A stretch of 63,860 nucleotides of DNA, filler included, from Rhizaria sp. SCN 62-66 (taxonomy: Eukaryota): assembly GCA_001724265.1 (NCBI GenBank). It is 3 parts of 3 records of this genome, joined end to end, with 100 filler letters (N's around TTAATTAATTAA, not from the genome) between each part and the next. Parts side by side here need not be neighbours in the genome. Positions count along the whole stretch, not along the records: positions 21,594 to 42,951 come from MEDY01000452.1; 2 more parts are not named here. The stretch is one strand, 5' to 3'. The notes beneath the pieces were generated by a model that did no database searches, was not told the DNA's origin, and saw nothing but the letters and a program-made list of their open reading frames with translations. The position numbers and the translations under genes are program-made. Of the stretch, positions 15,967 to 61,023 are shown piece by piece (the first letter of the stretch is position 1; each line of letters starts with the position of its first letter).

Positions 15967-18900
15967 ATGAGCGGGTCCGTTCAGCGAATGGACGTGACCA
16001 AGGAGAACCTTGCGCACATCTCACAGCTTCTACAGCACGCATCTAGTGGTGCCTATGATTCTGTACGTCCTATACCCGCGCTTTTAGTGTCTGCTTGCTC
16101 GCTCCTCTCAACAGTAGCTACCCTCTCGCTGACCTATCTGTACTTTCGTTCCAATTTCATCGTTTTTTCTCGCACTTCCTCACATTACCGGCTCACCTGT
16201 ACGATGATTGTTTCTTGTTCTCACCTTTTAGAGTACTTCCTTGCAAACCATCGACAGTTATATGTCTGTGATAGGCTTCCGCCAGTGCCTTCTCGTACGT
16301 CCTCCTTCTCACACTCGCTCAGCTCCAGAACTCTCACCACAAGCTCTCTAGCGCAACACACACTCCTGATTACGCGTCAAATTATTGCAAATAGGTATCA
16401 AACTACTCTTTTCTATTTAAATGTGTTATTATTTTTCAAACATGCTCTCACTATCTTCCGATATCCTCTCTACAATTCGTGATGACGCGCGTCGTTTTCC
16501 TCTAATGCTTGTCCTTTTGTGCAGACTCTGGCGCTCGACGCGACCGTGAACGCCAACTTGCGTTTGAACGCGCTTATTTGTCTTAAGAACTCCATCCGCA
16601 GCTACTGGAACCGGCACGCCACCGACTCCTCGGCCTCTGCAGAGCTCGCCGAGGCGGCGGCCCACCGCGAACAGGAGCGTCAGACTCTCCGTGCCGCCAT
16701 CCTTGACCGACTTTTCCAGGAGACGTCGCAGCCGATGGTGAACCAGCTCAAGGACGCTTTGGGTCACATCTCCACCGTCGACTTCCCCAAGGACTGGCCG
16801 GCTCTGGTCCCCACCATCACGGCTGCGCTCGCCTCGGCAGCTGGCATGCTCTCCACTGGCGCCGCCGCCGACACCGATGCGGCGTTCTTTCTTGCACAAC
16901 GCTCATTCGACGCGCTGTGCGAAGTTTTGGAGCGCCGCAAGCCCGTCCGCAAGCACATGATTGTCGCCATCTTGACGGACCACATCGACGCCCTCCACCA
17001 GCACTGGAGTGCGTTCATCGGCGCCTTTCTGCACGCGATCGCGACTCTGCAGGCGCCCCAAACTGCCGCGGGCTCCGCCGCTGTGGGCGCGGCGGCGTTG
17101 GCGACGGCGAGCCAGCTCGCCAAGGTGTGCCGCACCGGCACGCGTGCGCTGTCACTAACCGTAGTTGAGTGTAACCAGGGCGTGTGCACTAGCCCGCTCG
17201 GCCAGACGCTGTTCCCCAACATCGCTGAAGTGATGACGACTATGACCAAGTTCCAGCACGAACTGCCCTGCGTCGACGCCACGCACGCGCTGCGCACCGA
17301 CCTGCGCGACCTGCGCGCGTACGCTGCTGAGATGGTCATCCAGACGCAGCACCAGTCGCCACTGCTCTTCTCCCCCTTCCTTGGCCCCTTTCTGGCGCTC
17401 TTCAAGGTCATCATCGATCAGCGCGCCATCGTTCGCGACAACAAGCTCGCGCGCTTTGCCGCCACGCTTGCCGCGGCCTCCGCCACGGAGGGCTCGTTCG
17501 CCGGCGCGTTTGACATTGGCGACGACCAGGATGAAGGCAGCGGCAACACCAAGGGCAACGACGGCTGCTCCATGCAGGCGTTCAACTTCTTCTGCTCGGT
17601 GCTGCTCTCAGGCGTCTACCGCGGCTCCGCCGTTGCCTCGGCCATGGGCTCTGCCGGTGGACTGCAGTTTTCCCCCGAAGCCGCCTCGCAGGCGCAAACG
17701 TATGTGTTTGCTTAAAAGCTTTGTCATTCTTGTGTAAGACCTTGATGACTTGAATATCTCTTAAAAGCGGTGTTTACTTATTCAAATGTTCAAATGTTAC
17801 TTGATCACGCTTGACAAATTATACGTTGGAAAATTACTATTATTTGATATATGTATGCAAATTACATCACCAAACCCATCTATTGCCCGATATTGTTTGC
17901 TTTTACTACAGTGTTCTGCGGACGTTCTTCAGCGACGCGACGGTGACCTCCCTGTGCCAGGTCATCATCACATCCTACTTGCCCTGGACGCAGCTCGACC
18001 TCACGGACTGGGCCACCGACGCCGAGTCCTTCTTCGGCGACTACCGGTACCGCCGGTCGGACTCTGACGAGCGCGCCGCCGCTCTGGCGCTGCTGCACCA
18101 TTTCGGCACATCCCACGGAGAAATCGTCGGGAACCTGCTAATGTCCGGGCTCGGCCAGGCCGCGGCCGACGAGGAAGCCACGGGCGGTCCCACCGCGGGC
18201 CTCGTACCCAGCAGCAGTGCGCCAGGCACCGTCGTCGAGGCGAACGTCACCGCCGAGCAGTACATCGCGCGTTTCCGCAAAGACGCCCTGCTGCACGCTG
18301 TAGGCACCTGCGTGTTCGATGTCAAAGAGAGCTTCAACGCCTCGGCGCTGTACCAGCACGTCACTGACACGGCGCAGCGCGTGCTCGCCGCCGTCGGCTG
18401 CGCGGGGCTCGAGTCCGGCGGCGCGAACATCGCCGGCAACACCGGCGCTATCGGCAGCGGCAACGGCACGGACGGGCCCCAGGCTGCGCTGTCGATCACG
18501 ACCGCGCCCAGCGCTGTCTTAGCGCTGTACCGCTGCGTATGGGTCGCCGGCGAGCTGACGGAGGTGATCCCGCAGGAGCAGCTGCCGCAGCTCGTGGCGT
18601 TGTCGTTCGCGCTCCTGCAGGTGCCAGACCTGTTCCTCGCCCTGTCGTCGTCGCTGTCGCTGCGCGTTTTTGTCGACTGCGCGCTCTTCGACGCCGCGGG
18701 CTACGCGGCCGCCGCGCTGCCCTCGGGCGACTCGCCCATGACGGCCTCGTTCCAGCTCATCCTCTCTCTGTGCCAGCGCTGCGGCAACGCAGACAGCGTC
18801 ACGCACTTGCTCGGCATCGTCACCAAGACGGTCGAGGCCGTCGGCTCGCACGTGTCGCAGGCGGTGCCTATGCTTGTCGACGCGCTGCCGAAGCTCTGGG

Positions 18901-20595: not shown

Positions 20596-22473
20596 TTAGA
20601 TGGCGAAGAAGGATTCCGTGTCCAGAAACGGCGCGCACACCTTGATCTGGTCGCTACAAACGACCGACTCGCCAATTAGAGTTCGATTGTTAATATTTGC
20701 GACGTTACTGACATCGCCGATAACACTAACACTACGAATGATTATATCTTCACGTCAATTAAAAGTAGCTGTCAAGAGTTCCGTGCACGAGTAAACTACT
20801 CATATGATACTCGCGCTCGTTATTCTATAAGGTGTATTCATTCTGCACATAGTACGTAAGCCTTACGTACTTATACTAGTACTACATGTACATGTATTAA
20901 ATAAGAGCGACGAAAGTGAAACGAATTTGTAGCGCATGTATCGCATGTATTATTGCTGTGATTGTGACGCAGTTGAAATCAAGGTAAAGTAGTAAGATTA
21001 AGTAAGTACATGAGCCCATCCAGTTGCGTGGTAACATAATGTACCAGCGCCTTGCCTTGAGCGATGTCTTCAGGCGACGCACCCGCCTAATTTGTATATG
21101 TGAGAACCAACGGTTTGGGCGAAACGAAAGCAGGAACGACCTGAACCGTGTTATCCCACTTACTCTCAGGCAACGCCAGCTTCTTAATCTGGTCCAGTTT
21201 CGAGTTCTTCCTGGCCCGCAGCGTGTCCACCTCAGTCTCCATCATACTAATAGCCTCTTTTAGCTCGCCAGACTTCTTCTCATTTCCCTTCACATTCTCC
21301 AGCTTCTGCTTCTGCTTCTGCTTCTCCAGCTGATCCAGCATCTGCATCTCGTCCAACTCAAGCGACGCTAGCGCATCCAGCTCTTCATCCTTCAGCTTCG
21401 TCACCTCCGCCAACAGTTGGATCTCCTGCTGATTAGGATTCTCATGCGCCTGCAGTTGCCTCCTCAGCATCTTGAGCCTCTCCGCCAGCTCCANNNNNNN
21501 NNNNNNNNNNNNNNNNNNNNNNNNNNNNNNNNNNNNNTTAATTAATTAANNNNNNNNNNNNNNNNNNNNNNNNNNNNNNNNNNNNNNNNNNNNGGCCAGC
21601 TCCGCGCGGGCCGCGGCCTCCTTGGCGATGTTGGCCTCGAGCGAGGTGCTGGTGCGGTGCAGGCTCTCCTGGCGGGACACGAACGAGGCCTCTTTCAGCG
21701 TAGCCTCCTGGCGCGCGCGGTCAATCTCACTGGCCTGCTTGGCGAGCGCGTCAGCCTTGCTCTTGAGCTCGCTCTCGCGCGCCACCAGCTCGGCGTTGAC
21801 CGTGGAGCCCTCCGAGATGCAGCCCTCGAGACGCTCGAGGAACACGGCGCGCTCGTGCATCTTGGCCTTCTGCGCGTCGAGCTGGGCCGCGACGGACGCG
21901 TGCTGCTCGTTCTCGAGCAGCGACGCGCTGTAGCTTGCCTGGGTCTGCTGCGTCTCCTGCGACAAGAGTCTGTGAGGAGTAGGAGTGGGACGAGCGGAGT
22001 GGGTGGAAGTGGACGAGAGGGATTGAACGGTGGTTACCGAGGGGAGGAAGCAAAAAAGAGGGACATGAGGCTTTTGAGAAGGTGTTTAGCGTGAATTCAA
22101 TGCATGCAGCAAGCGCTGATAAAAAATGACGTTTGAATGAAGCGACAGAGTGAAGAAACAAAAGTAGGCAAAGGGGGCGGGCCTGGAGAAGGGGTAAAGA
22201 GCAAAACAAGACAATAGCAGGACCTATGGCCGACATGGGAATGCGTAGGGCAGCGCTAAGTGTAGATTAAGGGACGTACTGAGCAAGAGAAGCCTCAATG
22301 TCCTGGTTGACATCCAGAAGCGAGGACACAGGCGACCCCTTAGCAGCAGCAGAGCGAGCTGAGCTGGGCGAGGCCACACCATTGAGAAGCTCATGGACAT
22401 CTGACGCATACGCACCTTCCGCCGCAAAAGCAGCAACGAAGAGCGATGCAAGGAGAAGGATACACAACTTCAT
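20596..22473 (-). CDS. Secreted coiled-coil protein of unknown function; spans an assembly gap and contains one in-frame TAG
   Basis: Signal peptide MKLCILLLASLFVAAFA. Exons 22473-22280, 21969-[gap]-21010, and putative last exon 20653-20596 (DQIKVCAPFLDTESFFAI, TAA). Heptad E/K/Q/A/L-rich on both sides of the gap. In-frame TAG at 21087-21089. Continuity across the gap and the last intron (donor GTACTT) are inferred. Confidence 0.62.
21494..21593. other. Assembly gap spacer (N44-TTAATTAATTAA-N44)
   Basis: 100-nt N run with a six-frame stop linker at 21538-21549; same format as the second gap. Confidence 0.98.
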
Positions 22474-23274
22474 GTGCAAAATTCCCCCGAACACCAATTG
22501 TTCTCGGCACCCTTCCGTGTCTTCACGCCCCCTCATCAGCCCCTTTGCCTCGCTTCGGTCGGTGGTCGGTCGCCACTTTTCGTTGGTTAGATTTTTTGAG
22601 AACCCGATTTGTGTTCCTAAAAACTCCGCCAACCAGCTATCGTAGTAGTTTTGAGCCACCATCGCGCTCGCGCTCGGTCGAACTGCGAGGATATCTCAAC
22701 AGTCCTTCGACCAATATATATCTGTTTGAGATATGATATGGTCGTCATTAAAACCTTTGATGTCTCGTTATTGCTGCGCTTGGAGCCCTTAAAACACTCC
22801 ACTGCACGCATATTTCTAGCACTCTCTCGCTTGAACTTGGACTTCGAACATGACCTGCTTTCTCCAGCTCTTGCACCTCACAACAAAGCCCAATAGTCTC
22901 ACTTCAACCGAATTCCCATTTCGACTGATTTATTGTACCTTTTAGATTTGCTTTTACTTCTTCAAGCTGTAGCTGCAGACATCTATCCCCACTTTCTCGC
23001 CACTTCTCTCCCTTCGCTGGCAACTTCGCCCCGCTGTCACTGCCGCACCGCTTCCCAGCGCCGCACTACCGCCTCCAGGCCCGCTTTAAGCCCATTAGAC
23101 TTATTGGTTACCAAAACGACCCCAAGAGAAGCATACCACTGCGAGTGACGTCTCTAACCCCGTCTCGCCCTCCCTAGCCTGCCCTGTTTGACTCACCATC
23201 GCAGCACAACACAGTAAGTCTTGCCTCGCAGCGCGCACCTTCTTTGCTTCCCACGCACCACCACCCCCGCACAC

Positions 23275-24608
23275 ATGTCCAGCTCCGGCCCCTCGCACCA
23301 CGACGTGGACCGCTGGATCTCGCAGCTGGTGACCAGCTGCGTGCCGCTTACCGAGCTCGAGACGACGGACCTTTGCGACCGCGTGCGCGACCTGCTCCTC
23401 GAGGAGTCCAATGTGCAGCCGGTGTCGGCGCCCGTGACGCTGTGCGGCGACATCCACGGGCAGTTCTACGACATGCTGGAGCTGTTCCGCGTTGGCGGGC
23501 CTCTGCCGCAGAACAAGTACATCTTCATGGGCGACTTCGTGGACCGCGGGCACCACTCGGTCGAGACGGTGCAGCTGCTTTACTGCTACAAGCTGCGGTA
23601 CCCGGACCGCATCACGCTCATCCGCGGCAACCACGAGTCGCGCGCCGTTACGCAGACGTACGGCTTCTACGACGAGTGCATGCGCAAGTATGGCTCCACC
23701 TCGGTCTGGCGCGCCTTCACCGAGTCGTTTGACTACCTGCCGCTGGCCGCACTCGTCGACGGGCGCGTGCTCGCCGTTCACGGAGGCCTCTCGCCCGACA
23801 TCGGCACCGTGGAGGAGATCAGGATCATCCAGCGCAACCAGGAGATCCCCAACCAAGGTCCCTTCTGCGACCTGCTCTGGTCCGACCCGGAGGACATCGA
23901 GGTACGCACGGCTAGAAGAGCTTATAATCAGTATATCTTGCGTATATGAGGGATATATGGGAATTTATTTGATGTTGAGATCATTGTGCTGTCCATGTAT
24001 CTATATTTTCAATTTCACAATGACACATCGATACCATGTTTTTTTAATGTTCTACAATCTAACGCTTCTACAATCTAACGCTTTTCAATCTAACGCTTTT
24101 CTTAACTTTGCATTCTGCGTTGCTATGATTACTTTAGGACTGGGCGGTGTCGCAGCGCGGCGCGGGGTGGGTGTTTGGCCACAAGCCGACGTCGATGTTC
24201 TGCCACATCAACGGTATCGAGCTGATTGCGCGCGCGCACCAGCTCGTCCACGAGGGCTTCCAGTACAAGTTCCCAGAGAAGAACCTCATCACGGTCTGGT
24301 ACGTCTTATCTCTACATCCGCCAAGATCATGTCATGTCTGAAATATAATATCGTATTTTAATATTCTCTTATTACATTTATTTTAGACTATCGAGATCTC
24401 ATTCTCCCACCTATCTTTCTTTGCTGTCATTCATTCCTTTTTGTTTTTACATCATTTTAGGTCTGCACCTAACTACTTCTACCGCATGCGCAACGTGGCG
24501 GCGGTGCTGAGGCTGTCGGAGCACCTGGACCGCGAGATCCGCGTCTTCACCGACGTCAAGATGAGCAACGAGACGCAGAACACGCCCGACCTCCAGTACT
24601 TCTTGTGA
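23275..24608 (+). CDS. PPP6C: PPP-family Ser/Thr phosphatase catalytic subunit, PP6/Sit4-like; 3 exons
   Basis: Exons 23275-23901, 24138-24298, 24461-24608. [47 protein letters not shown]-terminal YFL. Stop TGA. Confidence 0.9.
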
Positions 24609-28228: not shown

Positions 28229-29719
28229 TTACCGCAGAAACAGAAACAATGTCTTGAAGATCTGCTCCTTCTGGGCGTGACTAAAGTCGTTGTTATTCAT
28301 AAGCCCATTGAAGAAGATCTTGAGCTCCAAGTTAAAGTCGTCCCGCCTGTCCCAGGACATTTGGGCAAGACGCTGGGGCATCATCAGCGACGCGAAGCGG
28401 TACTTGGGCAGGTCCGTGCTCGACTCGTTCTCGGGCCCTTTGCAGATGATGCGGTCTGAGTGGATAGTCACCGTGTCGCTGACGCCGTACGCTGTCCGCT
28501 TGCCGGTGTGGAGGTTGAACACAAGATCGTGCGGCATCGAGGTGCCGTTGATGATGTTCTCTAAAGCACGGAAATGGTTCTTCGTCATGTTGCGAAGAAT
28601 GTGCATCAACGCCTTTACATTCTACTCCTCTGCTTCAGACGCGGCGCGCTCCTCTGCACTCATATCATCCCAGTCTGGGAAAGTCTCGATTTCATCCTTA
28701 GCCACGAGATCAGCCCTCTAAATCTCGTCGTAAATCCGCTGCACGGCGATCCTGGCCTGCGCAACCTTGGACTTGGCCTTCTTGAACTCGTCTTCGGTGT
28801 CCTTCTTCCGCTGCTCGCCACCGTCGAGGACACCCTCAAGGAGACTGGTCTCCATCAGCGCATGCGCAAGCTCGGCCTGGTGGCACGCCTGCTGCGCCTT
28901 GATGAGCTCAGCCTCGGCGTCGGACATGCGGATCTTGTACCGCATCAGCTCGATCTTGTCACAGAGGCTCTTGGTTGAACTCTCAACATTCTCGACCGCC
29001 TTCTCAGCCTTCTCCACCTTAACATCATCCTCCTCGGCGGCTATTGCGTCGGACACCACCTTCTGCGCCTGCACCAGCTTCCCCTTGGACTGCGCCTTGA
29101 CAAGCGCGGCGGCGGCCGCTAGGAACTCGGATGACTCCGCCTCCGAGTACTGCTGCGGCTGCTGCTCTCTGGCCGCACTGCCCGGCTTGGGGGCATGACG
29201 CTGCTCATCGGCGGCTTTGAAACGCTTCAGGGCGGCGGCGAGTTCGCTCTCGAGCTGCGGCAGCGGCACACTGGCTACCGACTTGGCGTTGCTGTCGGTG
29301 TCCGTGTCCGTGGTCGACGACTCAGACTCGGGCTCGGACGAGGCCGTGCCGGCGTCCTTGCCCTTGGCAGCGGCCCGCGTCGCAAAGCTGCGGGAGACGG
29401 CGCCCGCGGGTAGCGCCCACGGCAGCAGAGCGCTGCTGGCGGCAAGAGAGTGGCGCGCGCGCTGAGGCTGAGACGTAGACGCCAGCGCGGCAAGCAGAGA
29501 CGGCGCCGACAGCGCGGGCGACGTGAGAGACGGGGCGAGACGGCGGGTGAGACCCGTGCGGCCACTGATCACACCGTTGTGGGCGGTGTTGTCGTGGGTC
29601 GCGAGCAAGGAGGACGAAGGCTTGCAGATGGACAACATGTCAGCAAAGAGTGGCGTTGTTACGGGAGAATGCGACGCAAGGAAGCGTGACGCACGAGAGG
29701 AAACGCGACTCAGAATCAT
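28229..29719 (-). CDS. Orphan coiled-coil protein with mitochondrial-presequence-like N-terminus; 496 aa if two TAGs are read through
   Basis: ORFs 28718..29719 and 28229..28609 share one frame and are separated only by TAG at 28718-28720 and 28622-28624; the linker is coding-like with no intron signature. Stop TAA. Confidence 0.72.
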
Positions 29720-32810: not shown

Positions 32811-33300
32811 GCGCAAAAATGACAAACTACTCAGTCGAGTCGACTTAACAATAGAAACACACTGCCTTTTCAAGTTGTTATTTGCTGTTTTCAAGTCATT
32901 GTGTATTCAGTTCATGCCTATTGCTACACACGTGGGTCTCCTGGCGCATAGCAAGCGTCTTCAAACATATGCGCTGATATGTGCTTGTTTAATCTCCATT
33001 TTGCGCTTAGACCGCCGCCGCCGCCGCCACTGCCCGCGAGCTTCTGCAGCTCCTCCGAGACCTCAATTAATGTATGTCTAATATCAGACTAAAGTCATAT
33101 CAAATATGTTAATTTATTTGACGTTACCGTGTTTGTTTTTGAAAATGCAGATAATATTTTCATTTTGATGGATGATTCGGCGCACCTGAATCGAGCAGAT
33201 GCACAAGCATAACACACAATTGACTCGAGGAGATACATAAATTATACTAGTATCGGAGAAATAGATCCATGACGCAATATTTTAAGGAGCTGCATGCCTC

Positions 33301-36300
33301 TCACAGTTGTCCCGCCGCTGTGCCACGTGCTGCCCCTCTGTAGCTGTCTCTACTGTCGTGGGTGTGAGTGCGGAATGCGTCTTCGGTCTCCGTCTCGTAC
33401 TAGTCTGTCATGAGCTGCCCGATGCCGTCGACTGCGCCGCTGCTGCCCGCGCCGCGCGCCTACAGCCACTCAGCGCCGTCAATCATTCGCAGCACACCGC
33501 TGGCGTCACCGCCAACGTTGCCACTGCTCACGTCACTGCTGGCGCAGCAGTCACCGCCAGTCTCCCGTGAGTCACCAGCGCCAGCGCCATCACTGTTTGT
33601 GCGAATGATTTTCGACTAAGGAGCACTCAAACAACTGCTAAAGTATGATGTTTGGGTGCCCGCAGCGTTTATACCCGCAGTAACACTGTCACCGTCGTTG
33701 TTGTTACTGGTAACGACGTTGTTTGTATCACTTGAAGCAATAGCAGCGACAGCCAGGCTAAAAAACGCGCGGCCCGTTGCTGTTGTGCTGCCCAGGCACG
33801 CGTTCGAACAGCTGCTGACCGTGCTGCTGCGGCGCTGGCGACTACAAAGAGCGATGCAAACACCGACGTTGCTCCTTGTGTTAGTAGTAACGCGGAGTTG
33901 CGCCTTGTGGGCACTAGTGCGTAGTGTCGCGAAGGAGCGGCGCGGCAGAGGACTGCCGGTACTGTCAACAGTGCTGACACCACTGCTGCGCGAACTAGCG
34001 CTGGCAACTGCAGCGCTTGCGTGAGCGGCGTCTTGGCTTGCGGGGGTTGCGGCAGAGCTGGGGTGGCTAAGTCTGCGGTCGCGCACCCAGGCCAGACTAG
34101 GGTCCTGCTCGAAGTCAGTCAGCGACGCTGCGTGCAGCGCCTGCTCGCTCAGCGCACGCGCGCTCTCGCTCTCGGAGATAACTTTCTCGCTCTCCGACAG
34201 CAGCTCCTCGCTGCGCTGCAGCGCGCGGTCGCTTACTTCCTCGTTGTTAGAGACGAGCAGCCTCTCACTGTCAGACAGCATTTCCTCGCTGTGATGCAAT
34301 GCGCGGTCGCTCGCATCCTCGTAGTCAGCGCGGCTAAGGTTAGCTGCGCCGCCATAGCTGGGGCAGACAAAATCTTGAGTTGATTGTGCATTAGTAGCCG
34401 CGTGAGGTGTGTTTGTGCTTGCGTTGCTTGTAGTGCCGTCGTCATCTTGGATGCGCATAGCAAAGTTGCTCATGTTACTAGTGCCGTTTTTCTCAAGCGA
34501 ATTGCAGCGCGTGACTCTTGGCACTGCAAGCGTGAGCAGCTGCAGCGGCGAGCGGCCCCCACTCACGCACGGCGTCCCCGTTCCCGCGTCCAGAGTCACG
34601 CGGGCCCGGTCCTCGCCCCATTCGCAGTCGCGCTCGCGCTCACGTTGCTCTTCAGCCGCCGCTGAGGGATCATCAACCTCCGCTTCGGCTTTGAACTCAG
34701 TCTCGTCCTCGGCAACTACTGCGACAGACTCGGCCTGTGCGGCAGCGGCGGTTGCTGCAGCGGCGCTGGCGCGAGCCGCGGCAACAGCGGCAGCAGCAGC
34801 AGCGGACGCGACAAAGGAACTCTCCTTGGCAGCGTCTAAGCTAGTGACGCTGTGTTTGTCCGTGGTAGCGTTTTGACTTGAGCTGCTGCCCAGATGAGTG
34901 CTGTTCTCACTTGTGTGATGTGTGCGACCGGCACTAGCTGAGTTGTTAGCGCTGTCTCTGTTAAGCTTGTTGGCGTTGACAAACGTAGGCAGCATGAGGT
35001 CTCCGTCGTACACGCCAGTGACAAAGTCGACGAGTGCGACACGTGCGGCGAGCGGCGACCGCGTCACGAGCTGCGCTGCGTCAAGAAACACGGAAGAGGC
35101 ATCTTGCCCCGTTGATTGCGCCCGTGTCAGCGCTTGTAATCGTGAACGCGACCGTGATCGTGAGCGGGACCGCGATTGCGCGCGTAGGTGGTCGAGCGAC
35201 TGCATGTGCTTATGTTTGCTCTGGTGGACGTGATTGTGCGCACCATCAAAAAGCCCACGCACACCATGCTGACCACGTTCGCTTGCTGTGTGCGCAACAC
35301 CCAACGCTCTCTTGCGCGGCTGCTCCGTGGCGTGGTGGCTGTGCGGCAGCGTTCGCGTGTGCAGCACGTGGTGCCACGGCACCGCCCACCCGGCGCCGTC
35401 GCCGCCCGCCTCGTCCTCGTCCACGGGCCCCCACTTCGCGCCAGCTTTGTCGCCGGGCGTGGCAGCACCGCGTTTGTGAGGAAACAGTCTGTGACCGTGC
35501 CTGCGTGTGGGGCTGTAACTGATATCATGGTTGCGATTATAAACGTTCTATGTCAAACGACGTTGACTTGCCTACACGTCTCCCCGCTTCTTCCGCAGCT
35601 GATCAAGTTCATGCTGGTGCTGCTGCAATATCTCAAGCCTGTCGATTGTGTTAATTGCACTTGCACTTGCGTCGTCATATCCGTCGGCAGAACTGTCCCT
35701 GTTGCGGTTATACGTACTTCCTGTGTTGATACCGCCAGGCTTGTGGCGCAACATACTTGCAACACTTAACTGCGAGCCAGCACGGCTTGTGTTATGCGAT
35801 ATCAGGTTGTTAAACGCAGTGCTAATGCCAACGCCTCCCGGAAAAGTACTATGAGAGGCGTTCGCGCTCACAGTAGAGCTGTACTGCCGCCGCGTCCACC
35901 ACGCGCCCTGGCCGCCGTGGGCGGGCCCGCTAGCGCCGGTGCTGGCGCGGCTGTCTTGGCCGGCGTGGCTCGCAGCGGCAGCGCGGATGGCCGCAGTGGT
36001 CTCCTCGGCAATCGCGGTGGCCTGCGCGCTCTTGAGCAGGTGGCGCCATGATCGCGGCGGCTGCGGCGCCCAGCCCCCCGCCTCGGCGCCCAGCTCAGAG
36101 CTGCTGTCTTCATGAATGCTTGCAGTGCCAGTGCGGCGTGCGTTCGCGGTTGAATCTGAGATCGGCTGGCCACGCATGTGCACAGACCAGTGCGCGTCGC
36201 CTCCAGCGCTAGAGTCCGCGCCTGCGCCTGTGCGATGAACGCTGTCTGTAATGTCACTGTAGGCGGACGCTGTGGGCGGCGTCAGCGACTGCGCGGGCCA

Positions 36301-39300
36301 GCGCAGCGAGGCGCGGTTGCGCAGCGCGGCGGCGATGACCTCCGCCAGTGACACAGGGCCGCGGGCGGCGCTGGTGCCTGGGCCGTCAGTCGAGGGCGCT
36401 GTTGCAGCTCCGACGCCACCAGCCGTACTGCGGGCGGCGCGAGGAGACTTTGGGTTGCTGCGATCACCATATGAAGCAAACCTTGCAACATGATGTGCGC
36501 TGGCACGGCCATGGTGTTGGATGTTGCCGCCCATGCTGGTATCCGCCGCCCATGCAAGGGGGCTGTAGCTGTGGTCGCTCGCCTCAGCTTCTGCAGCAGC
36601 CTCGGCCTCCGCCGCAGCCACCGCCGCGCGCGCAGCGTCCTGAAGATACGCCGAGTAGCCCCGCTCGCGAGCCCGCGACTGCTCCCAGAACTGCGACCAG
36701 TCGCCGCCGCCCACGGCTGCAGCGTCGCCTTGGCCCAGCTTTAGACGAACGCCCGCTGTGTCAGCGGCGCCCACATTGGCAGTCGCGCGCGCACGGGCGC
36801 GGGCATTAGCCTCAGCGTCAGCGGCCGCCTGCGTCAGCACTAGGATTCGCTGCTCCTCGCTTTTCGCGACCACAACGTCGTTGCCGCTCTCGTGCGCACG
36901 GCTCGCGCGCGCATCCATGTAGGTCTTGTGATCGACGGGAGCGTCCTCTGCAAGCGCGGCGCGCCGGTCGCGTTCGCGGTCGCGGCGGGCCGCCACGAAG
37001 CGTGCGCGCGCCGCCAGCTCGCGCCACAGCGGCGCCAGCGCGGCGCCTTTGGCCGGGCCCAACAGCCGCGGCACTGGAGCCGCCGCCGCACCGGTGCGCA
37101 CCACTGCGCTGTTGCCGCGGCTGTCGGTGACAACGGCGTGGGGCGCTGCGGCTGCGTCGGCGTGCCCGCGGAGCGCGTGCAGCGTGCGCGCGCGCAGGGA
37201 CTCCCTGTTGTTGTTTTCGAACACGCCGGTTCTGGCGCTGACGTAGTCCGCGCCGCGCCCCGCGAGCCGTTCTAACTCCTCCTCTTGCTGGTGCAGCTGC
37301 TTATAGTGATTTTGCGCCTCCGCGCGCCGCTCGCGCGCGAAGGCGAGCTCCTGGAGGTCGGCCGCGTCCGGCAGCGCCAGATCGGCCCAGGTAAGCGGGC
37401 TGTACGCCGCAGCGGGGACGCTGAGGTGGACGGGGGACGCGCTGACGCCCATGCGCGCGTGTGGCGAGTCTGTGAGCTCACCGACGGAGTAACGCAGACC
37501 GGAGTCAGCATGGCCTCTGTCACTTAAACTAGAGCTATTTGTGTAACTGTTGTCGTAGTCGTCCTCGGTGTTGCCTGTATTAGTGCCGCTGCGCGCTTTC
37601 CTTTTAGTGCCGGTAAACGGCGCTGTTGCGGCCGGCGTGGAGAGGGGCGAGAACATCGGCTGGGACACAGGAGAAAAGAACGTTGCTTCGTCGCTGTTGC
37701 TAAAACTGTTGTTGTTATAGCTGTTTCTCCGCGCACCGTCGCTGTCGCTGTAGCTGTGACGGCCACTCCTCGCGGCTGCACGATCATTGCCAGTGTCACC
37801 ACCGACGATCGCAAACCACCTGCCAGCACGACTGCGTCTCGCGTCACCGTTGCTGGCGCCGGTGTTGTCAGTGGGTCTGTCACTACTGTCTGTGCGCATA
37901 TGCTGCTGGTAATGCGGTTCGCCCTGCGGTTGTTGCTGCTGTTGCCGTTGCGATTGTGCATACCTCGACCGTGCTGACTGCGACGGCGGCGACCGCTGCG
38001 GCGACTGGGAGAACACGGGGAAGCCGCTCCCGCCGACGCGGCTCGCCTGCTCCCCACGGCCTAACTGCGATCCGGGGAACTTAAGCCCAGTGTAAGTGCC
38101 GAAGCTCCTCCGGCCGCTCGTGCCACTGCCGCTGCTTGCATTGCCAGTGCTACTATCTCCGCTGTTTTTCACAACGCCGCTGCCGTGCGTACCGCCGCCA
38201 TTGCTATGCGGTTTGCTGCTATTGTGCATTACCGAGCGCGCGGGTTGCCAGCGCACGCCGCCGTGCGCGCAGCTGATAAACGTGCCCGCGCCCGCACCCG
38301 CGGGCTCCGCCAACAGCGCCGACGACGGGCAGTGGCGATGACCGTGGGCCGCGGAGTGCGCCGACGGGTGACCGTGGGCCAGGGGCCCTTGCGTGTCGCG
38401 GGTCGCTATACCAGCTCCGGTATGGTTATCGGTGGCAAGACCGCCGCTTGCGTTGCTGACGGTGCTACTGGTGCAGTTGTTGCTGTCAGAGCTGTCGTCT
38501 CCCTTGTTCTCGCCGTCGCCGTTGATGCAGTAGCTGAGCCCGCTGAAGGTGCTGAGGTCGCGCACCGTAGACTCGCCCAGCTGGCTCGTGCTCGCGTGCT
38601 GGTAGCCGCCACGCGCACCACCAGCACCCTTGTGACTGTGAGCAGCAGTCTGACCGCAAGCAGCGGAGTGACCGTGAGCGGAGTGACCGTGGGGCGGCAC
38701 GGCGGGAGGACGCAACACAAGCCACGGCTGTGGTAGTGCTGATGTGGGCGCGGCGGCAGGCGCCACTTCGCCGCCCTTCAAGTACTTGAGGCAGTTGCTG
38801 ACGGCAGTAGTACCGCTGCCGGGAGCCGATTTATTAACCGAGTGGGCAGTGTGAGTCGAGCTTGCATTGATAATGTTAGAGTTGCCGCCACCGCCAGACA
38901 TACGTGCTCTGCTGTCAAGCTCGCACTGCGGCGCCAGGCTGCTTGCCCGCATGTGCACAGTGGTGCCCTTGAGCGCGAGGTCCCCGCTATTTCGACTGCT
39001 GCTGCTGCTGCTGCTGCTGTCGACTGAGGGCGCTGAGTGCGGGTCGTTTGACTGGGACGGTGCATGCGCGCTGGCGCTACTGTTGCCGCTTGCAATGCCG
39101 CCGTGCTGGATAGCCGCAGGGCTGTTGCTGCAGCGTGTGCTACTGAAACGCATGTGGTTAGTAACGTATTGCTGGAGCGGACATGTCACCGTGTTGTGAC
39201 TTGAAGCGAGGGAGTGACTTGAAGTAGCGACCTGGCGGCTCAATGCGGCCTCGCCCAGGCGACGACTTGAAGATTCAGATGCTTTCAGCAAGGGAGCCAG

Positions 39301-39333
39301 CGCGCGACTGCGCAAGTTTATCGCGCGGAGCAT
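33301..39333 (-). CDS. Large low-complexity orphan protein with presequence-like N-terminus; about 2010 codons with 5 in-frame TAGs
   Basis: One frame runs from ATG 39333 to TGA 33301-33303 with no TAA/TGA, only TAG at 35572, 35548, 33616, 33460 and 33400. May splice (intron 33304-33078) to a last exon 33077-32912. Confidence 0.75.
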
Positions 39334-39880
39334 TGTTCTGAGTGTCGATGTGGGCTGCTGTCTCTTAAGCTAGAAAGCAACTGTGAGCTCAAAGGCAAGC
39401 AACGTTACTCGAACGTGTGTACTGCGCCAGTCCAATTAGAACAGGGTACATCGTATGAAGGCAGACGACTTAGGAAATTTAAAAACGAATAAATAACTAA
39501 ACATAGCATTTACTGTTGCCGGCGCAACCATGGATCTGATAACGGTTTGTTCAAGTTCATTTGAGAGAGACTTACAAAGAGTACTGAGCCAGGTCATGTG
39601 TGCCACGTGGAAGCCCCGTTGTTTGAGGCCGGTGGCAGCACACCACTTGAAGTGATCGCATATAGACAGCAAACTTGTTAAAACATATGTGTATCGGTGT
39701 AGTACTGCGTTTCTTTTTTCTGGTTACGCGCCAATGAGTGGACAGTAGTTAGCCCCCACAACTCTTAAACAGCTTCATCAATATATGGTTTGTTTGTTTC
39801 AAATTCTCCCTCTCTCCCCCCGCACTCGCAGTGCTGGGGTCTCTGGAGGGACGCCGTGTCTCGCGCGCGCGTGGTCGCGC

Positions 39881-40927
39881 TTAGTTGGCTGAGGTGAACT
39901 TCTTGGCAGCCGAGATCTCGCCCTCGGCGCCCTCGGTGGCGGCCTTGGCGTAGTCGCCGAACTTGCTCACCACGAGCGCCTTCTTCTTGTCCTCAATTGA
40001 CTTGCAGCAGACCAGCACCTCGCGCTTGAGCGAGTTGTGCAGCGTCTCGGCCTCGTCCGCCTTGCTCTGCGCCGAGTCGATCTCGACCTGGGTCGCCTTC
40101 TTGGACTCGACCGCGGACTTGAAGCTCGCCTGCTTGGCGTCGAAGTCGAGGCGCGAGTCAGAGGCCTTCTTGATCAGCTTATCCGTCGACTTGACGTCGT
40201 TCTCAAGCAGCTCCGAGACCGCATCGATGACCTGGGATTGCGGTAACAAAGCAAAGCAAAATGGTAGAAAGAGTGTGTGAGACGAAAGGGAAACGCGTTA
40301 GACACTTAACTGTACGTGCAGTGCGATCATTACGTCTTGTCTAAGAGTAAAAGCAAACTATTCAAAAAGAACCCACACAAATCCACAATACAGAGCCACA
40401 TTAGGTCGCTTTCATGACGACTGGAGCACCGAAAGAAAATCATTCCCGACGTACGTGGATCTTGAAGGCGGCGAGGCGCGTGGCCTGCGCGGTGTGGGCC
40501 TCGGCGACGAAGGTGCCGAAGGCGCGCAGCGAGGCGTGCGAGTCAGCGTCGGTGGACTGGACCTTGGCGGTGGTGGAGCCGAGCGCGAGGAATGACTCGA
40601 GCGCGGAGGCTTCGGTCTTGTGCCACTTCTTGGCGGCCTCGAGGAACTCGGTCATCTCGTTGCGCGTGGCCTTGAACTGAGCCACGGCGTCGACGTACTC
40701 CTGCGAGTCCGCAGTAGACTCGGCCTTGCCAACCTCTGCGTGGGTGGATACAATCAGTTACAACAGATACAAACGTCATGGTGAGGAATTGGGATGAGCA
40801 AGAAAGAGTGGGGCAAGCGGGAGGATACGAGAGTGCGAGCGATTGGAACAGGGAAACAAAAGCGGGGATAGAACGTACTCTCCTTGGCGAACTGCTTAAG
40901 CTTGTTGAACTTGTCGAGGAAAGACAT
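39881..40927 (-). CDS. BAR-domain protein; 3 exons
   Basis: Exons 40927-40879, 40735-40455, 40231-39881. N-terminus KLKQFAKEKVGKAESTAD, helical body, SRLDFDA motif; strong codon bias. Stop TAA. Confidence 0.78.
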
Positions 40928-42951: not shown

Positions 42952-43766
42952 NNNNNNNNNNNNNNNNNNNNNNNNNNNNNNNNNNNNNNNNNNNNTTAAT
43001 TAATTAANNNNNNNNNNNNNNNNNNNNNNNNNNNNNNNNNNNNNNNNNNNNGTCGACGGCGCACTTGCTCGAGACCGTTATGGTTCCCGCGCACGCGTTT
43101 GCGCTCGCGCGAGAGACGTTTGCCGGCGGCGATAGACCCAGCAAAGCGCGCGAGATCGCCGACACAACTGGCTCTGCCGGCGAGCTTTCTCGTGACGAGT
43201 GCGCAGCGAGGATGGACGATAGCGAACGTGCCTGCGCTGCGCTGGTGCCCGCCTACCGCGCGCGCGTGCCCGCCGTGGCGCTGGGCGCTCTGTGGGGCCG
43301 GTGGTACGCACCGCTGCCGCGCGACATGGCCCTGCCGTGGGCGCTCCCCGCAACACAAATAGAGTCTGGAGCGAATGACACACTCAGCAGCGCGACCGCT
43401 ATGGATCAATGCACTCTGAGTGCGGTGCCGCGGCCGATGCTGTTTTCGTCGCCGCTGATTGCGGACGAGACACTGCGGCCATCAACTGGGCTCCACATCG
43501 CCCCCGGCCACCGGAATGGCGGCGCACACAGCCACGTCAATGCTAGCGTGCGTTCCACTGCATCAGGAGGTGCCACGGTAGCGACTGCGAATACAACGAG
43601 TGTGCGCGCAAATGCGAGTGCAGCGACGATGGATGCGGTCCAGCTTGAAGCTGTCGTGGTCGCGGGGAGCCATCAGATGCACGAGACGGACTCCCCCGTG
43701 GTGGCTGTACGCCTGCTGCAGTTTCTGGAGAAGCGCGCGCTGCTAGAGCAGCCGCGCTACCACTGA
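41410..43766 (+). CDS. RPP40: RNase P/MRP subunit p40 (RPP40)-like; spans an assembly gap
   Basis: Pre-gap HVFNQRLDV, LLSPAFL, AALHPSGLLHLALDLDTFQTLGL match the Rpp40 N-terminal half. Post-gap PAVALGALWGRWYAPLP and GHRNGGAH resemble the Rpp40 C-terminal PWxxLxVxGFxDSP and GFRKGGEH motifs. Stop TGA. Confidence 0.72.
42952..43051. other. Assembly gap spacer (N44-TTAATTAATTAA-N44)
   Basis: 100-nt N run with stop linker at 42996-43007, directly after a (GCC)n tract. Confidence 0.98.
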
Positions 43767-52249: not shown

Positions 52250-53322
52250 GTGTGACGCGTGGTATCGGCGTAATTTGAGCTTGTTTGTGGCGTGTTGTAA
52301 GGCAGACAAGCTGCCGAGAAGCAGCATGCAGCGCCTTGAGGGAAAGGCTGAGGCTTGTGACGATTTTGAGTTTTCTGGTCACACTTGAAGCAAACATGTT
52401 TAATTTTCGCATCAAGTAGATATCAATACACAAAAAGCCCGCTGGTGGTGATTTATTTCAATTGGTTGAAACCGTGGGAAGATATTCATTATTTTGTCAC
52501 TCTGAGCAAACAGGCGACTCTTCCTTCGAGTGCAGAAAATGCTAAACGAGCCGCGACCGCAAGCTCGCGCGAATACTGATTCTTTCTACCACCTATACCC
52601 CGCCGATTTGACATGAAGAACATATTCGTGCAAGATTCTGTCGGTGGTACCGGTTTGTTTATTTGTGTTTTGAACCTAGCCCGACATAACCTGCCGTGCG
52701 CCTATTTCTTCGCTCGCGCCGCCACTAGACCTCGGCCATGAGAGACCACACCTTCCCGGCTCCATATGAAAACCCCGAACGGCTAGTTAAGTGAAACCAG
52801 CATATATATAGCAGGATTTTGCCCATAGCTACGGTTTTATAATGTTGCTTTTGTGCAACAATGCACTTCTGGGTCGCTATGAACAGGGGCAAAAAGTCCA
52901 AAGGCGGCCATCGTTGTGAGAGTCGTTAGAATTTCGCGAAGCAAATATTCACCCCACTTCAGAGTCTATACTCGAATTTTGTCCTCCCTAAAAGACAGAT
53001 CGCAGTGTGATCTAACTTCTTGTCACAATTTGTTGCTATTCTCACATTATCTGTTTCTATCTGACCTCTTTCCTGCTCTCCTTCCCTCCCTTCCCTTTGC
53101 GTGCCACTTGTCACCTTTCGGCGTCTTTCCTGTCCCCAGTGCGAGCGTCCCTCGCCCCCAAACGACTCCACTTTCTCCTTCGTGCGCGTTAATCCCTCCG
53201 CACACCCCTATTTGGCGTCTTTTCCTCCCCTGCTTAGTGGCCGCGCTCGCGCCCGTCGCCTCCCTCTCTCCCTCACCACACCAACAAACCAACAAACTCG
53301 CCCCCTTAACTAAACTCGGCCC

Positions 53323-56300
53323 ATGCACCCCCTCGCGTTCAGCCACAGCGCCGGCAGCAACTCTTTCGGTAGCGGCAGCGCTGCCAGCGGCCTGCTTGGC
53401 GCGCGCGTCCCCACCGCGGCTTCCAGCATGCCCGCCGTGCCCGCGTTCACTACAAACACATTTACGACGCAGACACCGACGCAGACGACGCATACCCATA
53501 CGACCGTGGGCTCGAGCCTGAGCCCGACGTCCGCCGCCGCAGCCGCCGCTGCCGTGTCGTTTCGGCCCAAACCTGCCCCAGTTGCAGCGGCGCCGTCGCT
53601 GCCGCTGGCGCTCCCATCTGCGGCCCCCTCAAGTAGCAGCTTTTACAGTGCCGGACCGAGCGCGAAGCCTGGGCTTGCGTTTGCGCGCCCCAGCGCCAGT
53701 GTAAGTACCCCTGGCTCCGGCAGTGTAAGTGCCGCTGCCTCGGGCGCCGGTGCAGTCTCTAAGCTCTCTCTGGGCAGCAGCGTCAAGCCCACGCCACAAC
53801 TGCCTCAGCTGCAGCCACAGCCACAGGCAAAGTTGTCGCAGCCTCAGTCGCCGTCGCAGATGGCGCAACCGCAGCGTCAGCAGCGCAGCTCCTCCGGCCA
53901 ACACTCAATGCAAATGCAGATGCAGATGTCGAATAATGGAGGCTACATCCAGACCCCCGCACTGGCGTTGTTGCAGTCGCAGGGCATCTTGCAGGCGCTG
54001 CCGAAGCGGGAGCCCCATCCTCAGCTGCTGCAACAGAGTTTGTTCTACTCCTCCGCTCTCATGGGTGGCCAGTCGGCGGGGGCCAACAGCAACAATAACA
54101 GTATCAAGGCGAACTGCAATGGCAACGGCAACAACAGCATTGCCAGTGGCAGTGCGGGTCTCGCACTGCGGCCCACAGGTTTGAGCCAGAGCCTTACCTA
54201 CGGCCAGGGTCAGGCGGGGCTGAGTCCTGAGACGCAGCTTAAAATGCTTGTCATGCCCTCACAGTTGCAGACGCAGCACCAGCAGTCTCAGTCCCAGTCT
54301 CATTCGCAATTGCAGTCGGTGCTGCAACACCTCACGACCAGTGACAGCGGCCACTCGCCGACTCACGGTCACTCCGCTGCTCACGGTCACTCCGCTGCCC
54401 ACGGTCACTCTCCGGCTGCCGCCGCCACTGTTGCTCACGGTCACTCGCTGTCCCCGCTGACGTCTGCCGCGACAACGGCCAACGTGTCGCCGAAAACCGA
54501 CCCCAACGACGGCGACGGCGACGGCGACAACGACGACGACGACGACGATGAGGAGGAGGATTACAACGCCAATAGTCGCCGCCGCAGCAGCAGCCGCCGT
54601 GTCCGCGGCAAGCCCGCTGCTAATGCAGCCTCTGCCTCTTCCCACGGCCACGGGACGAGGAGCGGCACGTCCAGCGTGACTCACAGCGGCTTCACCAGTC
54701 TGTCCGCCTCGCCCTCAGCGTCGCCCTCGGCGTCGCCCAGCTCGACCGGGCTCAACTCGCCGCTCGACCTCAACGGCAACGGCAACGACGACGACGATGA
54801 TGACGACGACGCCGCTGACAACGGCGACGACGACGAGGACGACGGCGATGATGACGGCGGCGGCAGCAGCAGCAACAAACCGCTGCGCCAGCGCCAGCGC
54901 CAGCGCCAGCGCCAACAGCAGCAGCAGCAGTCCGCCGCGGCGGGGGGCTCCTCCGTGGCCCTGACGCCGCGGCAGCAGTCGGCGCAGGTGGCGCGCGCGC
55001 ACAAGGCCCACAAGCGGCAGCTTGAGAAGCAGCGCGCAGCAGACCGGATGGCGCGCCACGCTTCCGCCAAGAAGGCCGCCGCCGCTGCCGCCGCCGCCGC
55101 CGCTGCAGCCGGTGGCGCCGCCTCTGCTGGAACTGCTGCTGCTGCGGCTGCTGGCACTGGGAAGAGTGATGGCAGCTCACCCACCTACAGCCTCAGCAGC
55201 GGCGACGGAGGCGATGGCGGCGAGCTTGAGATCAGTGGGCCTGTCACCAAGAAGAGCAGGACTCCGCACGCGCGCGGTGGCTTAACTTCCGGCAACGCGT
55301 CCCCCGCCTCGCCCCATAGTAGCGGCAGTCAAGGCAGCAACAGCGGCGACGAAAGCAGCAGTAGCTCCAGTGCCAACACCGACGACCACAACACCGCCGG
55401 TAGCAGTAACAACAACAGCAACAGTGTCTCAACAGTGCGTCAGAGCTCGCGGTTAGCGCACAAGGACCGGAGCGGGGCCGCCAACAGCAGCGGCGGTGGC
55501 GTTGGCAGAGGCTGGCGCAGTAAGTTTGACGACCTGATCGCCACGACCCCCCAGCAGCGCAACAGCAGCGGCAAACAACAACTCGCTGGTGAGATGCTGC
55601 AGCTGCAGCAGCTGCAACAGCAGCAAAAGCAACAGCAGCAATATCAACAGCAGATTCAGCAGATGCAGACTCAGTATGACGCCGCGGCTGCCGCTGCTGC
55701 TGCTTCTGCGCACGGCCACTCTGCTCACGGTCACTCTGCTCACGGTAGCTATGAGAGCTCGTCCGCGATCGCGAAGCTGCAGCAGCACCAGCAGCAGTAC
55801 GTGGCCCAACTTCAGCAGCAGCAACAGCAGCAGGTAGCCTTCGCCGCAGCGGCGGCCGCCGCCATTGCCGCAGCCGGCAACAGTCCTACGCTGAGTGCCA
55901 CCGGCGGTCATAGCAGCAGTGGCAGCGGCAACGGGCCGATGAATGCCAGCCCACTCTTGATCTCAAACATGCTCGCGGCCAGCCACATCAACAACAACAA
56001 CACCAACAGCAACAACAACTGCAACGGCAACGGTGTCGCGAGCGCGTTGCTATCGGCCACCCCGCTGAGCGCCGAGGCCGACGCCTTCTTCAAGGCCGAG
56101 ATCGCGAAGGAGTCGCGGGCGCTGCAAGAGCTCAAGGACACGCACGCGGCGCAGCTCGCCGCTTTCGAGGTCGCGCTCATGGCCGGCTGCCAGCGCGCGG
56201 GCGCGGGCGGGCTCGAGGCCGCGGCCACGCAGCTGCAGTTGCGTCGCGATGCGCTTAAGGCCGCGCTCGACGCCGCTATCCAGGGCGCGACGGAGCGATT

Positions 56301-56472
56301 GAGGGTGGTGCAGACGCAGCTGCAGCTGCAGCAGCAGCAACGGACGCTTCTGCAGCAGCAACAGCAGGCGCTGCAGCTGCAGCTGCACATCAACCAGCAA
56401 CAGCAGCACCTGCAGCAGCAACACACGCTACAGCAGGCAACCACTGGCAAGCAAGGCGCTATGAATAGCAGC

Positions 56473-56517
<45 letters not shown>

Positions 56518-59500: not shown

Positions 59501-61023
59501 GCCTGCAGCAACAGCAGCAGCAACAGATGCAGATGCAGCAGCGACTGACGTTGCAGCAGATGCAGCAAATGCAGCTGCAGCAGCAACAGCAACAGCTCCA
59601 CATGCACCTGCAGCAGCAGCAGCAACAGCAGCAGCAACAGCAGCAGTTCCAGCAGCAGCACCAGCACCAGCAGCAGCTTCTCGTGACCCGCCAGCCCACC
59701 GTCGCCGTGTCGGTCCGCCGTGGGCGCCCGCACGCCGACTACTCAGACTACATCGCCTCGCTGCTTATCACGCGGCTGGACCACGGCCGCGGCATCATCC
59801 CCTGGGAGCACGCCAGCGCTGAGGCCATCGCACGCGGCAGCCGCAAGTACGGCCGCTCGTCCGTCTTCGGCCGCGTCAACGCCATCAAGACCTTCCTGGG
59901 CAACTTCAGCGACGCAGAGAACCAGACGCGCATCACTCTGCGCGTCGCCGCGATGGCCGACGCGATGCTTCGGCGCCAGTACCCGCAGGGCTTCCTCCTG
60001 CCGCACGTTGACATCCCCCCAGTGCCGGCTGACGCCGACGCGGACGCAAACGCAAACGCAAACGCCGCCGCGGCCGCCGCGGGCGCGGGCGCGGGCCTCA
60101 AGGCGGCGGGCAAGGGCAAGAAGGCCGCCGCCGCCGCCGCCGCCGCCTCCCTCAAGAGAGCGTCCGAAAACGCGGTGGGCGGCTCGGCTGCTGCCAACGC
60201 CGTCGTGACCGCCACCGCCGTCGCGGCCGCGCGCGCGTGCCCGAAGCCGCTGCCGGTACGTCTGGCGGGCACCAACGTCACCGCCACCGACGTGGCCATT
60301 GCCGCCCTCGACAGCTTCGAGACGCTGACGGGCATTTACGCGCGCATCGACACGGCCGAGTGGACTGGCCCTGGCGCGCCGCCGCTGGTGCCGCTGCTGG
60401 CCGCGCTCTTCCGCAGCAACGAGCGCCGCCAGGCCGCCGAAGACAGCGCGACGGCCATGCGCGCCGCGCTGGGTATGCAGCAGCTGCAGCAGCAGCAGGC
60501 GGTGGACCAGCGCCAGCAGCAAAAGCTGCTGCAGCATCAGCAGCAGCAGCAGCAGGCCGAGCTCCGGCAGCAACAGACGGAGCAGCGCCAGATCCAGGCG
60601 GAGCAGCGGCAGCTGCAGGCAGAGCAACGGCAGGCCAGCAAGGCCGCCGCTGCCCTGTCCGCCGCGTCTGCCGCTGAGCGCAAGCTGATCGCCATGGAAC
60701 GCAAGATACTCGAGCGTAAAGCGCGCAGCCGTAGCCGCGGTCCCCAGGATCTCGACTTCATCTTCGTTCCTAGTCAGGACCAGAGCCAGAGTCTCGGCGC
60801 GAGAGTCGGCAATTGGGCGACCGATGCCGCCGCCTCCAGCAGCGCTAATGACGACAAATCCGCCGCTTCCAGCAGTAACAACAGTAACGCTGCTTCTGTA
60901 GATGTGCCGAATGTGCCTGTGGTCAAGCGTGAAAGCGTCCCCGACGGTGGCGCTGCCCACGGTTCCTTCGGCGGCGACATCAAAGTTAAGCCGGAGCCCG
61001 TCGAGCGGACGCGGACTCAGTAA
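53323..61023 (+). CDS. 2566-aa polyQ/polyA/polyN low-complexity protein, possibly a nuclear regulator
   Basis: Single 7.7-kb open frame, basic NLS-like stretches, RRGRP motif, C-terminal VKRE and VKPE. No recognised domain. Stop TAA. Confidence 0.8.
56473..56534 (+). repeat. (AAC)n microsatellite encoding polyAsn
   Basis: Long AAC run within the polyQ gene. Confidence 0.95.

Follow-up and report, generated by a model that had tools for sequence, protein, structure and literature searches.

In-frame TAG codons in two orphan genes of an uncultured eukaryote, Rhizaria sp. SCN 62-66, and the possible translation of UAG

A minus-strand frame interrupted by TAG codons only

We analyzed a window of 63,860 nucleotides (nt), made up of three joined pieces of the Rhizaria sp. 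SCN 62-66 assembly GCA_001724265.1, which is eukaryotic nuclear DNA with spliceosomal introns. The subject of this report is a long minus-strand frame at positions 33301-39333, hereafter the target, together with a second TAG-bearing locus, gene B; the middle piece of the window holds both. A sequence-only reading had proposed that the open reading frames (ORFs) 35572..39333 and 33616..35424 belong to one and the same frame and that this frame runs on past 33616 to a TGA at 33301. Translation of 33301-39333 on the minus strand bore this out on both counts, and the peptide strings that had been quoted were all present in it. From the ATG at 39333 to the TGA at 33301 there are 2010 codons, and the only in-frame stops inside them are five TAGs, with neither a TAA nor a TGA. 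The frame is composed as follows:

35575..39333, minus strand: ORF1, 1253 codons, from the first ATG of the transcript
35572..35574, minus strand: TAG1, codon 1254
35548..35550, minus strand: TAG2, codon 1262
33619..35547, minus strand: ORF2, 643 codons without a stop
33616..33618, minus strand: TAG3, codon 1906
33460..33462, minus strand: TAG4, codon 1958
33400..33402, minus strand: TAG5, codon 1978
33304..33615, minus strand: the tail, 104 codons after TAG3
33301..33303, minus strand: TGA, proposed as the true end of the 2010 codons

After TAG1, the frame runs for 757 codons with zero TAA, TGA or frameshift. By our own rough estimates from base composition, two ORFs share a frame with a chance of 1/3, and TAA and TGA are both absent by chance with a probability of about 0.34 in the linker (49 codons) and about 0.1 in the tail (104 codons). 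Taken singly, these figures are unremarkable. Chance is nevertheless a weak explanation for the TAG-only pattern, because the codon usage of the tail is rarely matched off frame and because gene B displays the same pattern (both described below).

The ORF1 protein is of low complexity and rich in Ala, Ser, and Gly. Pfam searches with ORF1 and ORF2 returned no family, and a word-index search for homologues with residues 600-1253 and 1264-2010 returned either nothing or only the target's own fragment P0002. The one contig obtained by scanning metagenomes for the target locus, L001 (3647 nt), is identical to window positions 33304-36950 and is not independent evidence.

RNA runs through all five TAGs of the target

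The RNA evidence consists of public contigs of runs X1 and X2, which stem from one sample, and of run X4; such contigs drop rare forms, those listed cover neither gene B nor positions 36033-37422, and the listing falls short of the total by 17 joints and 69 base differences. X1 and X2 act as cDNA, since their depth is about zero in intergenic bins and since three GT..AG introns (21970-22279, 40230-40452, and 40736-40878) have been spliced out of their contigs. X4 acts as DNA, with even depth and contigs colinear through both introns of the neighboring BAR gene. Over the target, the cDNA contigs gave the following:

33299..39423, minus strand: transcript extent in cDNA contigs, the 5' contig ending at 39423 and the lowest end lying at 33299
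33299-34079, 34095-34866, 34870-36032, 35253-35829, 37423-38496, 37847-38686, and 38769/38859-39423: X1/X2 contigs colinear with the target

Depth in X1/X2 is even, at 7.4 to 9.5, from 39423 down to 33299. TAG1 and TAG2 are kept unchanged and unspliced in both X1 and X2 contigs (34870-36032 and 35253-35829), as are TAG3, TAG4, and TAG5 in the X1 contig 33299-34079. The base differences in the RNA contigs that cross TAGs are all accounted for, and none of them falls on a TAG; the TAGs are also identical in all strains covered. The TAGs are thus present in the DNA of several strains and kept unspliced and unedited in the cDNA contigs, and all five target TAGs are, at the contig level, in-frame UAGs that lie inside coding sequence and are retained in the mRNA. 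The sequence-only reading had named two outcomes as contrary to it, namely, a transcript that ends just after 35572 and introns that remove the TAGs. Neither appeared in the contigs listed: the RNA runs on without a break past 35572, and none of the X1/X2 contigs listed skips a TAG. Upstream, the true intergenic gap between the BAR gene and the target (39424-39698, 275 nt) is without an RNA contig. The ATG at 39333 is the first one after the 5' contig end, there being none in 39334-39440.

In runs X1 and X4, ORF1 carries a 12-nt insertion at 37576, which keeps the frame. The other listed indels (1, 2, 7, and 15 nt) fall in introns or intergenic DNA.

Coding signal past the TAGs

Codon usage was scored with a log-odds model trained on 11 other ORFs (9697 codons), and 4295 GC-matched windows served as the off-frame comparison. 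ORF1 scored 0.21 versus -0.44 and -0.55 in its other frames, and ORF2 scored 0.18. The 104-codon tail, with a score of 0.20 versus -0.36 and -0.63 in its other frames, was like ORF1 and ORF2, and only 0.9% of the off-frame windows matched it. Right after the TGA, the sequence switches to AT-rich, GC dropping from 0.63 in the tail to 0.42 in the following 300 nt. Downstream of the accepted stops of ten control genes, in-frame stops of all three kinds were found. In-frame sequence of coding type therefore continues past the TAGs.

The first in-frame ATG of ORF2 is at 35205, after 113 codons without one, and three out-of-frame ATGs come before it. The 101 codons at 35209-35511 have a GC content of 0.75, 0.53, and 0.71 at codon positions 1, 2, and 3, respectively (chi-square P = 0.002). 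Given this periodicity, the lack of an in-frame ATG, and the earlier out-of-frame ones, ORF2 appears to be coding from well upstream of any possible start of its own.

Gene B is a second TAG-bearing locus

Gene B has a similar layout:

28229..29719, minus strand: gene B, comprising an ATG, 333 codons (ORF A), a TAG, 31 codons, a TAG, 130 codons (ORF B), and a TAA at 28229
28720-28718 and 28624-28622, minus strand: the two TAGs of gene B, on either side of the 31-codon spacer RADLVAKDEIETFPDWDDMSAEERAASEAEE

The spacer is coding-like. Its GC content is 0.55, compared to 0.24 to 0.41 in nine intron-type spacers, its only stops are TAGs, and it has no GT donor. ORF B begins at most 20 nt from the second TAG and has a codon score of 0.53, with a GC content of 0.80 at third codon positions (GC3). 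Pfam searches with the parts of gene B returned no family. An exhaustive protein search with gene B found its own two fragments and a single relative, P0004 (68% identical; 237 amino acids [aa]), which is present on 7 contigs, the longest measuring 103 kb. When DNA of a gene B relative was sought in genome contigs and viral contigs, no relative was found. Searching the ESM Atlas with ORF B (P0003) yielded low-overlap bacterial look-alikes only, which we took as noise.

P0004 ends in ...AVQRIYDEM and gene B ORF A in ...AVQRIYDEI, at the same codon, and conservation is high up to the stop. This shared stop excludes both an assembly error and recent decay. Since P0004 stops there and conservation extends right up to the stop, the stop at the first TAG of gene B is old and real in the DNA. 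Judging from codon usage, ORF B must then be translated, because it has kept its full codon bias despite an old stop upstream.

Both TAG-bearing proteins have Arg/Ser/Leu/Ala-rich N termini (MLRAINLRSRALAPLLK..., 39333-39220, in the target and MILSRVSSRASRFLASH..., 29719-29400, in gene B), which, judged by eye, look like mitochondrial presequences.

Stop codon use across the window

Stops with coding-like flanks of 40 codons on both sides were 0 of 1021 for TAA, 5 of 852 for TAG, and 2 of 1858 for TGA. Of these five TAGs, four belong to the target and gene B (TAG3 among them), and one is antisense to the target; the one of the two TGAs with a known position is antisense to the AAA gene. Thus no TAA and, as far as positions are known, no TGA in the reading frame of a gene has such flanks on both sides. 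Every other TAG closing a coding-like ORF sits in an intron (15149, 51219, 21087, 47856, and 24135), where it either closely follows a GTAYG. donor or forms the ..TAG acceptor. Among 13 gene ends, a small sample, we counted seven TAAs, six TGAs, and no TAG, as expected where UAG is not a terminator.

Alternative explanations

The segment that holds the first two TAGs of the target has features of its own:

35513..35575, minus strand: island of 63 nt, AT-richer, with GT..AG ends, holding TAG1 and TAG2

If this island were an in-frame intron of 63 nt (35575-35513), splicing would remove TAG1 and TAG2, the code would be the standard one, the protein would end at TAG3, and the tail would be untranslated region (UTR). 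In its GT and AG ends, its AT-richer composition (GC, 0.34 to 0.48), and its length divisible by 3, the island does resemble an intron, but it has no consensus 5' splice site and is not removed from the RNA: its 5' end, GTAGGC, is unlike all nine 5' splice sites seen, and the X1/X2 cDNA contigs keep it while splicing out three neighboring introns. It would also be the shortest intron of the window, and a motif of ORF1 recurs in the peptide that it encodes, YNRNHDIS repeating YNRNRDSS (residue 1208, 46 residues upstream) in codons that differ synonymously in part; 5 of 300 shuffles reached this 6/8 identity. An intron would account for neither gene B nor the coding-like tail, and we consider it improbable. 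We rate slightly lower still a stage-specific A-to-I editing of the mRNA that would turn UAG into UGG (Trp), with the full-length protein made only in an unsampled life stage. It would suit the restriction to TAG and to a few genes, two of them near each other, as well as the conservation of one TAG in a relative and the fungus-like intron signals (GTAYGT and TACTAAC), and the known fungal system is reported to favor UAG and to include a tandem UAG UAG case (PMC11156358, PMC4817773, PMC10776026). Against it, the cDNA contigs show no A>G at any TAG, and a predicted hairpin loop contains the TAG adenosine in 3 of the 7 cases versus 17 of 39 out-of-frame TAGs, that is, without enrichment; moreover, the orphan status of both genes speaks against a well-sampled ascomycete lineage.

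A more serious contender, although in our view an unlikely one, keeps the standard code and takes the first TAGs as real stops. ORF1 (1253 aa) and ORF2 would then be two same-strand genes, adjacent or overlapping, or two cistrons, the tail would be a GC-rich 3' UTR, and ORF B would be a separate small gene or cistron. TAG2, 8 codons past TAG1 and within a local drop of GC, is indeed like a tandem stop; P0004 ends at the last codon of gene B ORF A; no other gene has an in-frame TAG; and two genes ending in TAG out of about 15 would be ordinary. A stop at TAG3 would likewise give a normal 3' UTR reaching to 33299, comparable to that of the BAR gene, which measures about 170 to 290 nt and is partly GC-rich too. 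The cost of this account is two independent coincidences of a shared, TAG-only frame (about 0.11 and 0.17 by our own estimates) plus a coding-like tail without TAA or TGA, of a kind met in 0.9% of off-frame windows. ORF2 would have to be open, with coding periodicity, for 113 codons ahead of its first ATG and behind three earlier out-of-frame ones, while ORF B, at no more than 20 nt from the second TAG of gene B, leaves no room for a promoter. The RNA is also continuous at equal depth over the junction of ORF1 and ORF2, in contrast to the 275-nt RNA gap between the BAR gene and the target. Finally, the gene could have been truncated recently by nonsense mutations, the former coding sequence downstream being still undecayed. 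With GC-rich codon usage, TAG is the stop most easily reached by a single mutation, and the 23 listed strain differences (7 synonymous and 16 nonsynonymous) indicate weak constraint. We nonetheless find truncation barely credible, in view of 757 codons past TAG1 without TAA, TGA, or frameshift, of TAGs that are identical in all strains covered, and of a gene B stop shared with a 68%-identical relative while ORF B retains a GC3 of 0.80 and full codon bias.

Translation of UAG as the most economical reading

We thus return to the proposal that UAG is translated in this organism while UAA and UGA terminate. It is the most economical account of both loci, and we give it about an even chance of being correct. 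Read-through of UAG is the best explanation because neither a transcript end nor TAG-removing introns were seen in the RNA, because the coding signal goes on past the TAGs, and because a second locus behaves alike. As for the broader claim of the sequence-only reading, that the target is evidence for UAG recoding, it is supported in part: it gains from the retention of the TAGs in RNA, from the coding signal beyond them, and from gene B, and it loses from the lack of a homologue over any TAG and of TAGs elsewhere.

Several observations weigh against this proposal. Other genes of the window contain 0 in-frame TAGs in about 10,800 codons (AAA, importin-11, PP2A-like phosphatase, DnaJ, GDA1, BAR, and the 2569-, 1304-, and 991-codon ORFs included), compared to 7 in the 2506 codons of the target and gene B. 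Equal usage would give this with a probability of (0.188)^7, or about 1e-5 by our own arithmetic, which excludes UAG as a plain, evenly used sense codon. UAG was not found in many genes, conserved ones among them, at the positions of one amino acid, and all seven TAGs lie within the last 38% of their frames. Protein and metagenome searches gave no homologue aligned across any of the seven. The window contains no tRNA gene by tRNA scan, the Rfam scan was without a match, and no eRF1 was found in it. That P0004 stops at the first TAG of gene B would also be expected from a genuine terminator, and, on sequence comparison, one would not quite expect such a shared stop if UAG were an ordinary synonymous sense codon. 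The strain differences indicate little constraint and are too weak to decide, and the codon score of the stretch 35209-35511, despite its periodicity, is no better than -0.02, a level attained by 15% of off-frame windows. Beneath the resolution of the contigs, a minor form that is spliced or edited may exist. Lastly, the X1 RNA contig ends at 33299, 2 nt past the TGA, and L001 ends at 33304. If 33299 is the end of the mRNA, TAG3 would leave a normal 3' UTR of 317 nt and the TGA almost none; if instead the assembly broke off there, in a polymorphic flank, constraint that ends at the TGA would agree with it.

Under the proposal that UAG is translated, the target would be one gene, in an uncultured eukaryote with few introns, transcribed into one unspliced mRNA of about 6.1 kb whose frame ends at the TGA at 33301. 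From the observations above we infer ribosomal passage through UAG as well as an agent that decodes it. The ribosome would pass the five UAGs by inserting an amino acid, and the decoder could be a cognate or suppressor tRNA(CUA) or a very efficient near-cognate read-through, with UAA and UGA serving as terminators. As a sense codon, UAG would be rare and, in this window, restricted to the 3' parts of two orphan genes that evolve fast, which is consistent with a reassignment that is young or still ambiguous in part. We put forward, as a doubtful extension, that the capture of UAG is at an early or ambiguous stage in this unsampled wastewater lineage, UAG having been dropped as a terminator and being translated at a few 3' positions of fast-evolving genes, at least one of these positions being conserved between species and both genes having N termini that look like mitochondrial presequences. 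If true, this would represent a natural "ambiguous intermediate" of stop codon reassignment.

Comparison with known systems

Only a few lineages are known in which UAG alone has been reassigned in the nuclear genome. They include Rhizaria sp. exLh (UAG = Leu) and Iotanema spirale (UAG = Gln), in which in-frame stops are exclusively UAG and the terminators are UAA and UGA only (PMC5304391). The same source reports 384 in-frame UAGs from 71 conserved genes, most of them where Leu is conserved, and a usage that varies by gene class, being rarest in ribosomal protein genes, half of which are without any UAG (PMC5304391). The window resembles exLh and Iotanema in that all in-frame stops are UAG, the gene ends are UAA or UGA, and UAG is unevenly distributed between genes; it differs in having 7 UAGs in 2 orphan genes and 0 in about 10,800 other codons. 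In phyllopharyngean ciliates, including uncultured metagenome taxa, UAG has been reassigned to Leu or Gln and UAA is the preferred stop, UAG being widespread as a sense codon and suppressor tRNA genes having been identified (PMC11687900). Here too, only UAG is affected and TAA is the commonest gene end, whereas, unlike in those ciliates, the window is a GC-rich multigene contig with long introns, rare UAG, and no tRNA gene. The known UAG-only cases are backed by tRNA genes and by UAGs that number in the hundreds and fall on conserved positions, and the present case is not.

Programmed stop codon read-through yields C-terminally extended isoforms. Like such read-through, the present case involves a stop whose position is conserved in a relative (P0004, for gene B) and in-frame coding sequence after it, with TAGs toward the 3' end; unlike it, there are two to five stops in series and 757 codons past the first. 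The bases 3' of the seven TAGs of the target and gene B are G, A, T, G, T, A, and A, and we know of no read-through context that is present at any of them.

In filamentous ascomycetes, premature UAGs undergo restorative A-to-I editing, and 71 such "pseudogenes" are reported for one species (PMC11156358, PMC4817773, PMC10776026). The present case shares the specificity for TAG, the small number of genes, the tandem TAGs, and a site conserved between species, and it differs in that the target cDNA contigs are without editing and hairpin loops are not enriched.

If it holds, the case adds to the UAG-only nuclear reassignments, perhaps as one that is unusually early or ambiguous. It would add a GC-rich lineage with multigene contigs and rare UAG, which might show reassignment near its beginning. 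Gene callers split the target and gene B at the TAGs, P0001, P0002, P0003, P0005, and P0006 all being fragments; if UAG is read as sense, standard-code proteomes of this organism are wrong at such loci.

Gene content and style of the window

DNA of the window is present in wastewater and activated-sludge runs. GC content is 0.60 to 0.69 in coding sequence, with GC3 up to 0.88, and 0.24 to 0.45 in introns and most flanks. The genes of the window are intron-poor, and their introns are far more AT-rich (GC, 0.24 to 0.41) than the exons. Apart from the 63-nt island, introns are about 80 to 310 nt long. The nine 5' splice sites that were defined, GTACGT (three times, RNA supported), GTATGT (three times), GTACGG, GTAAGT, and GTACGC, all conform to GTA[CTA]G., and in one intron a TACTAAC box is followed by a long T run. 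Further features of the window are the following:

Pfam matches: split AAA, importin-11, PP2A-like (Metallophos), and BAR genes, and also GDA1/CD39, DnaJ, PTEN-C2, and Rpp40
12632-12753, 17715-17805, 21970-22279, 40230-40452, and 40736-40878: introns
23218-24608, plus strand: PP2A/PP4/PP6-like phosphatase gene, three exons
53314-61023, plus strand: long ORF, 2569 codons
5407-9321, plus strand: long ORF, 1304 codons
44345-47320, minus strand: long ORF, 991 codons
21494-21593 and 42952-43051: identical joiners, each 44 N + TTAATTAATTAA + 44 N, with a stop in all six frames

Minus-strand coding sequence seems to run on across the first joiner (21494-21593). Intron 1 of the phosphatase gene ends in TAG (24135-24137), which passes for an in-frame TAG in a stop-to-stop reading of the ORF. 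Each of the three long ORFs ends in TAA, contains zero in-frame TAGs, and has a Pfam signal that is slight or absent.

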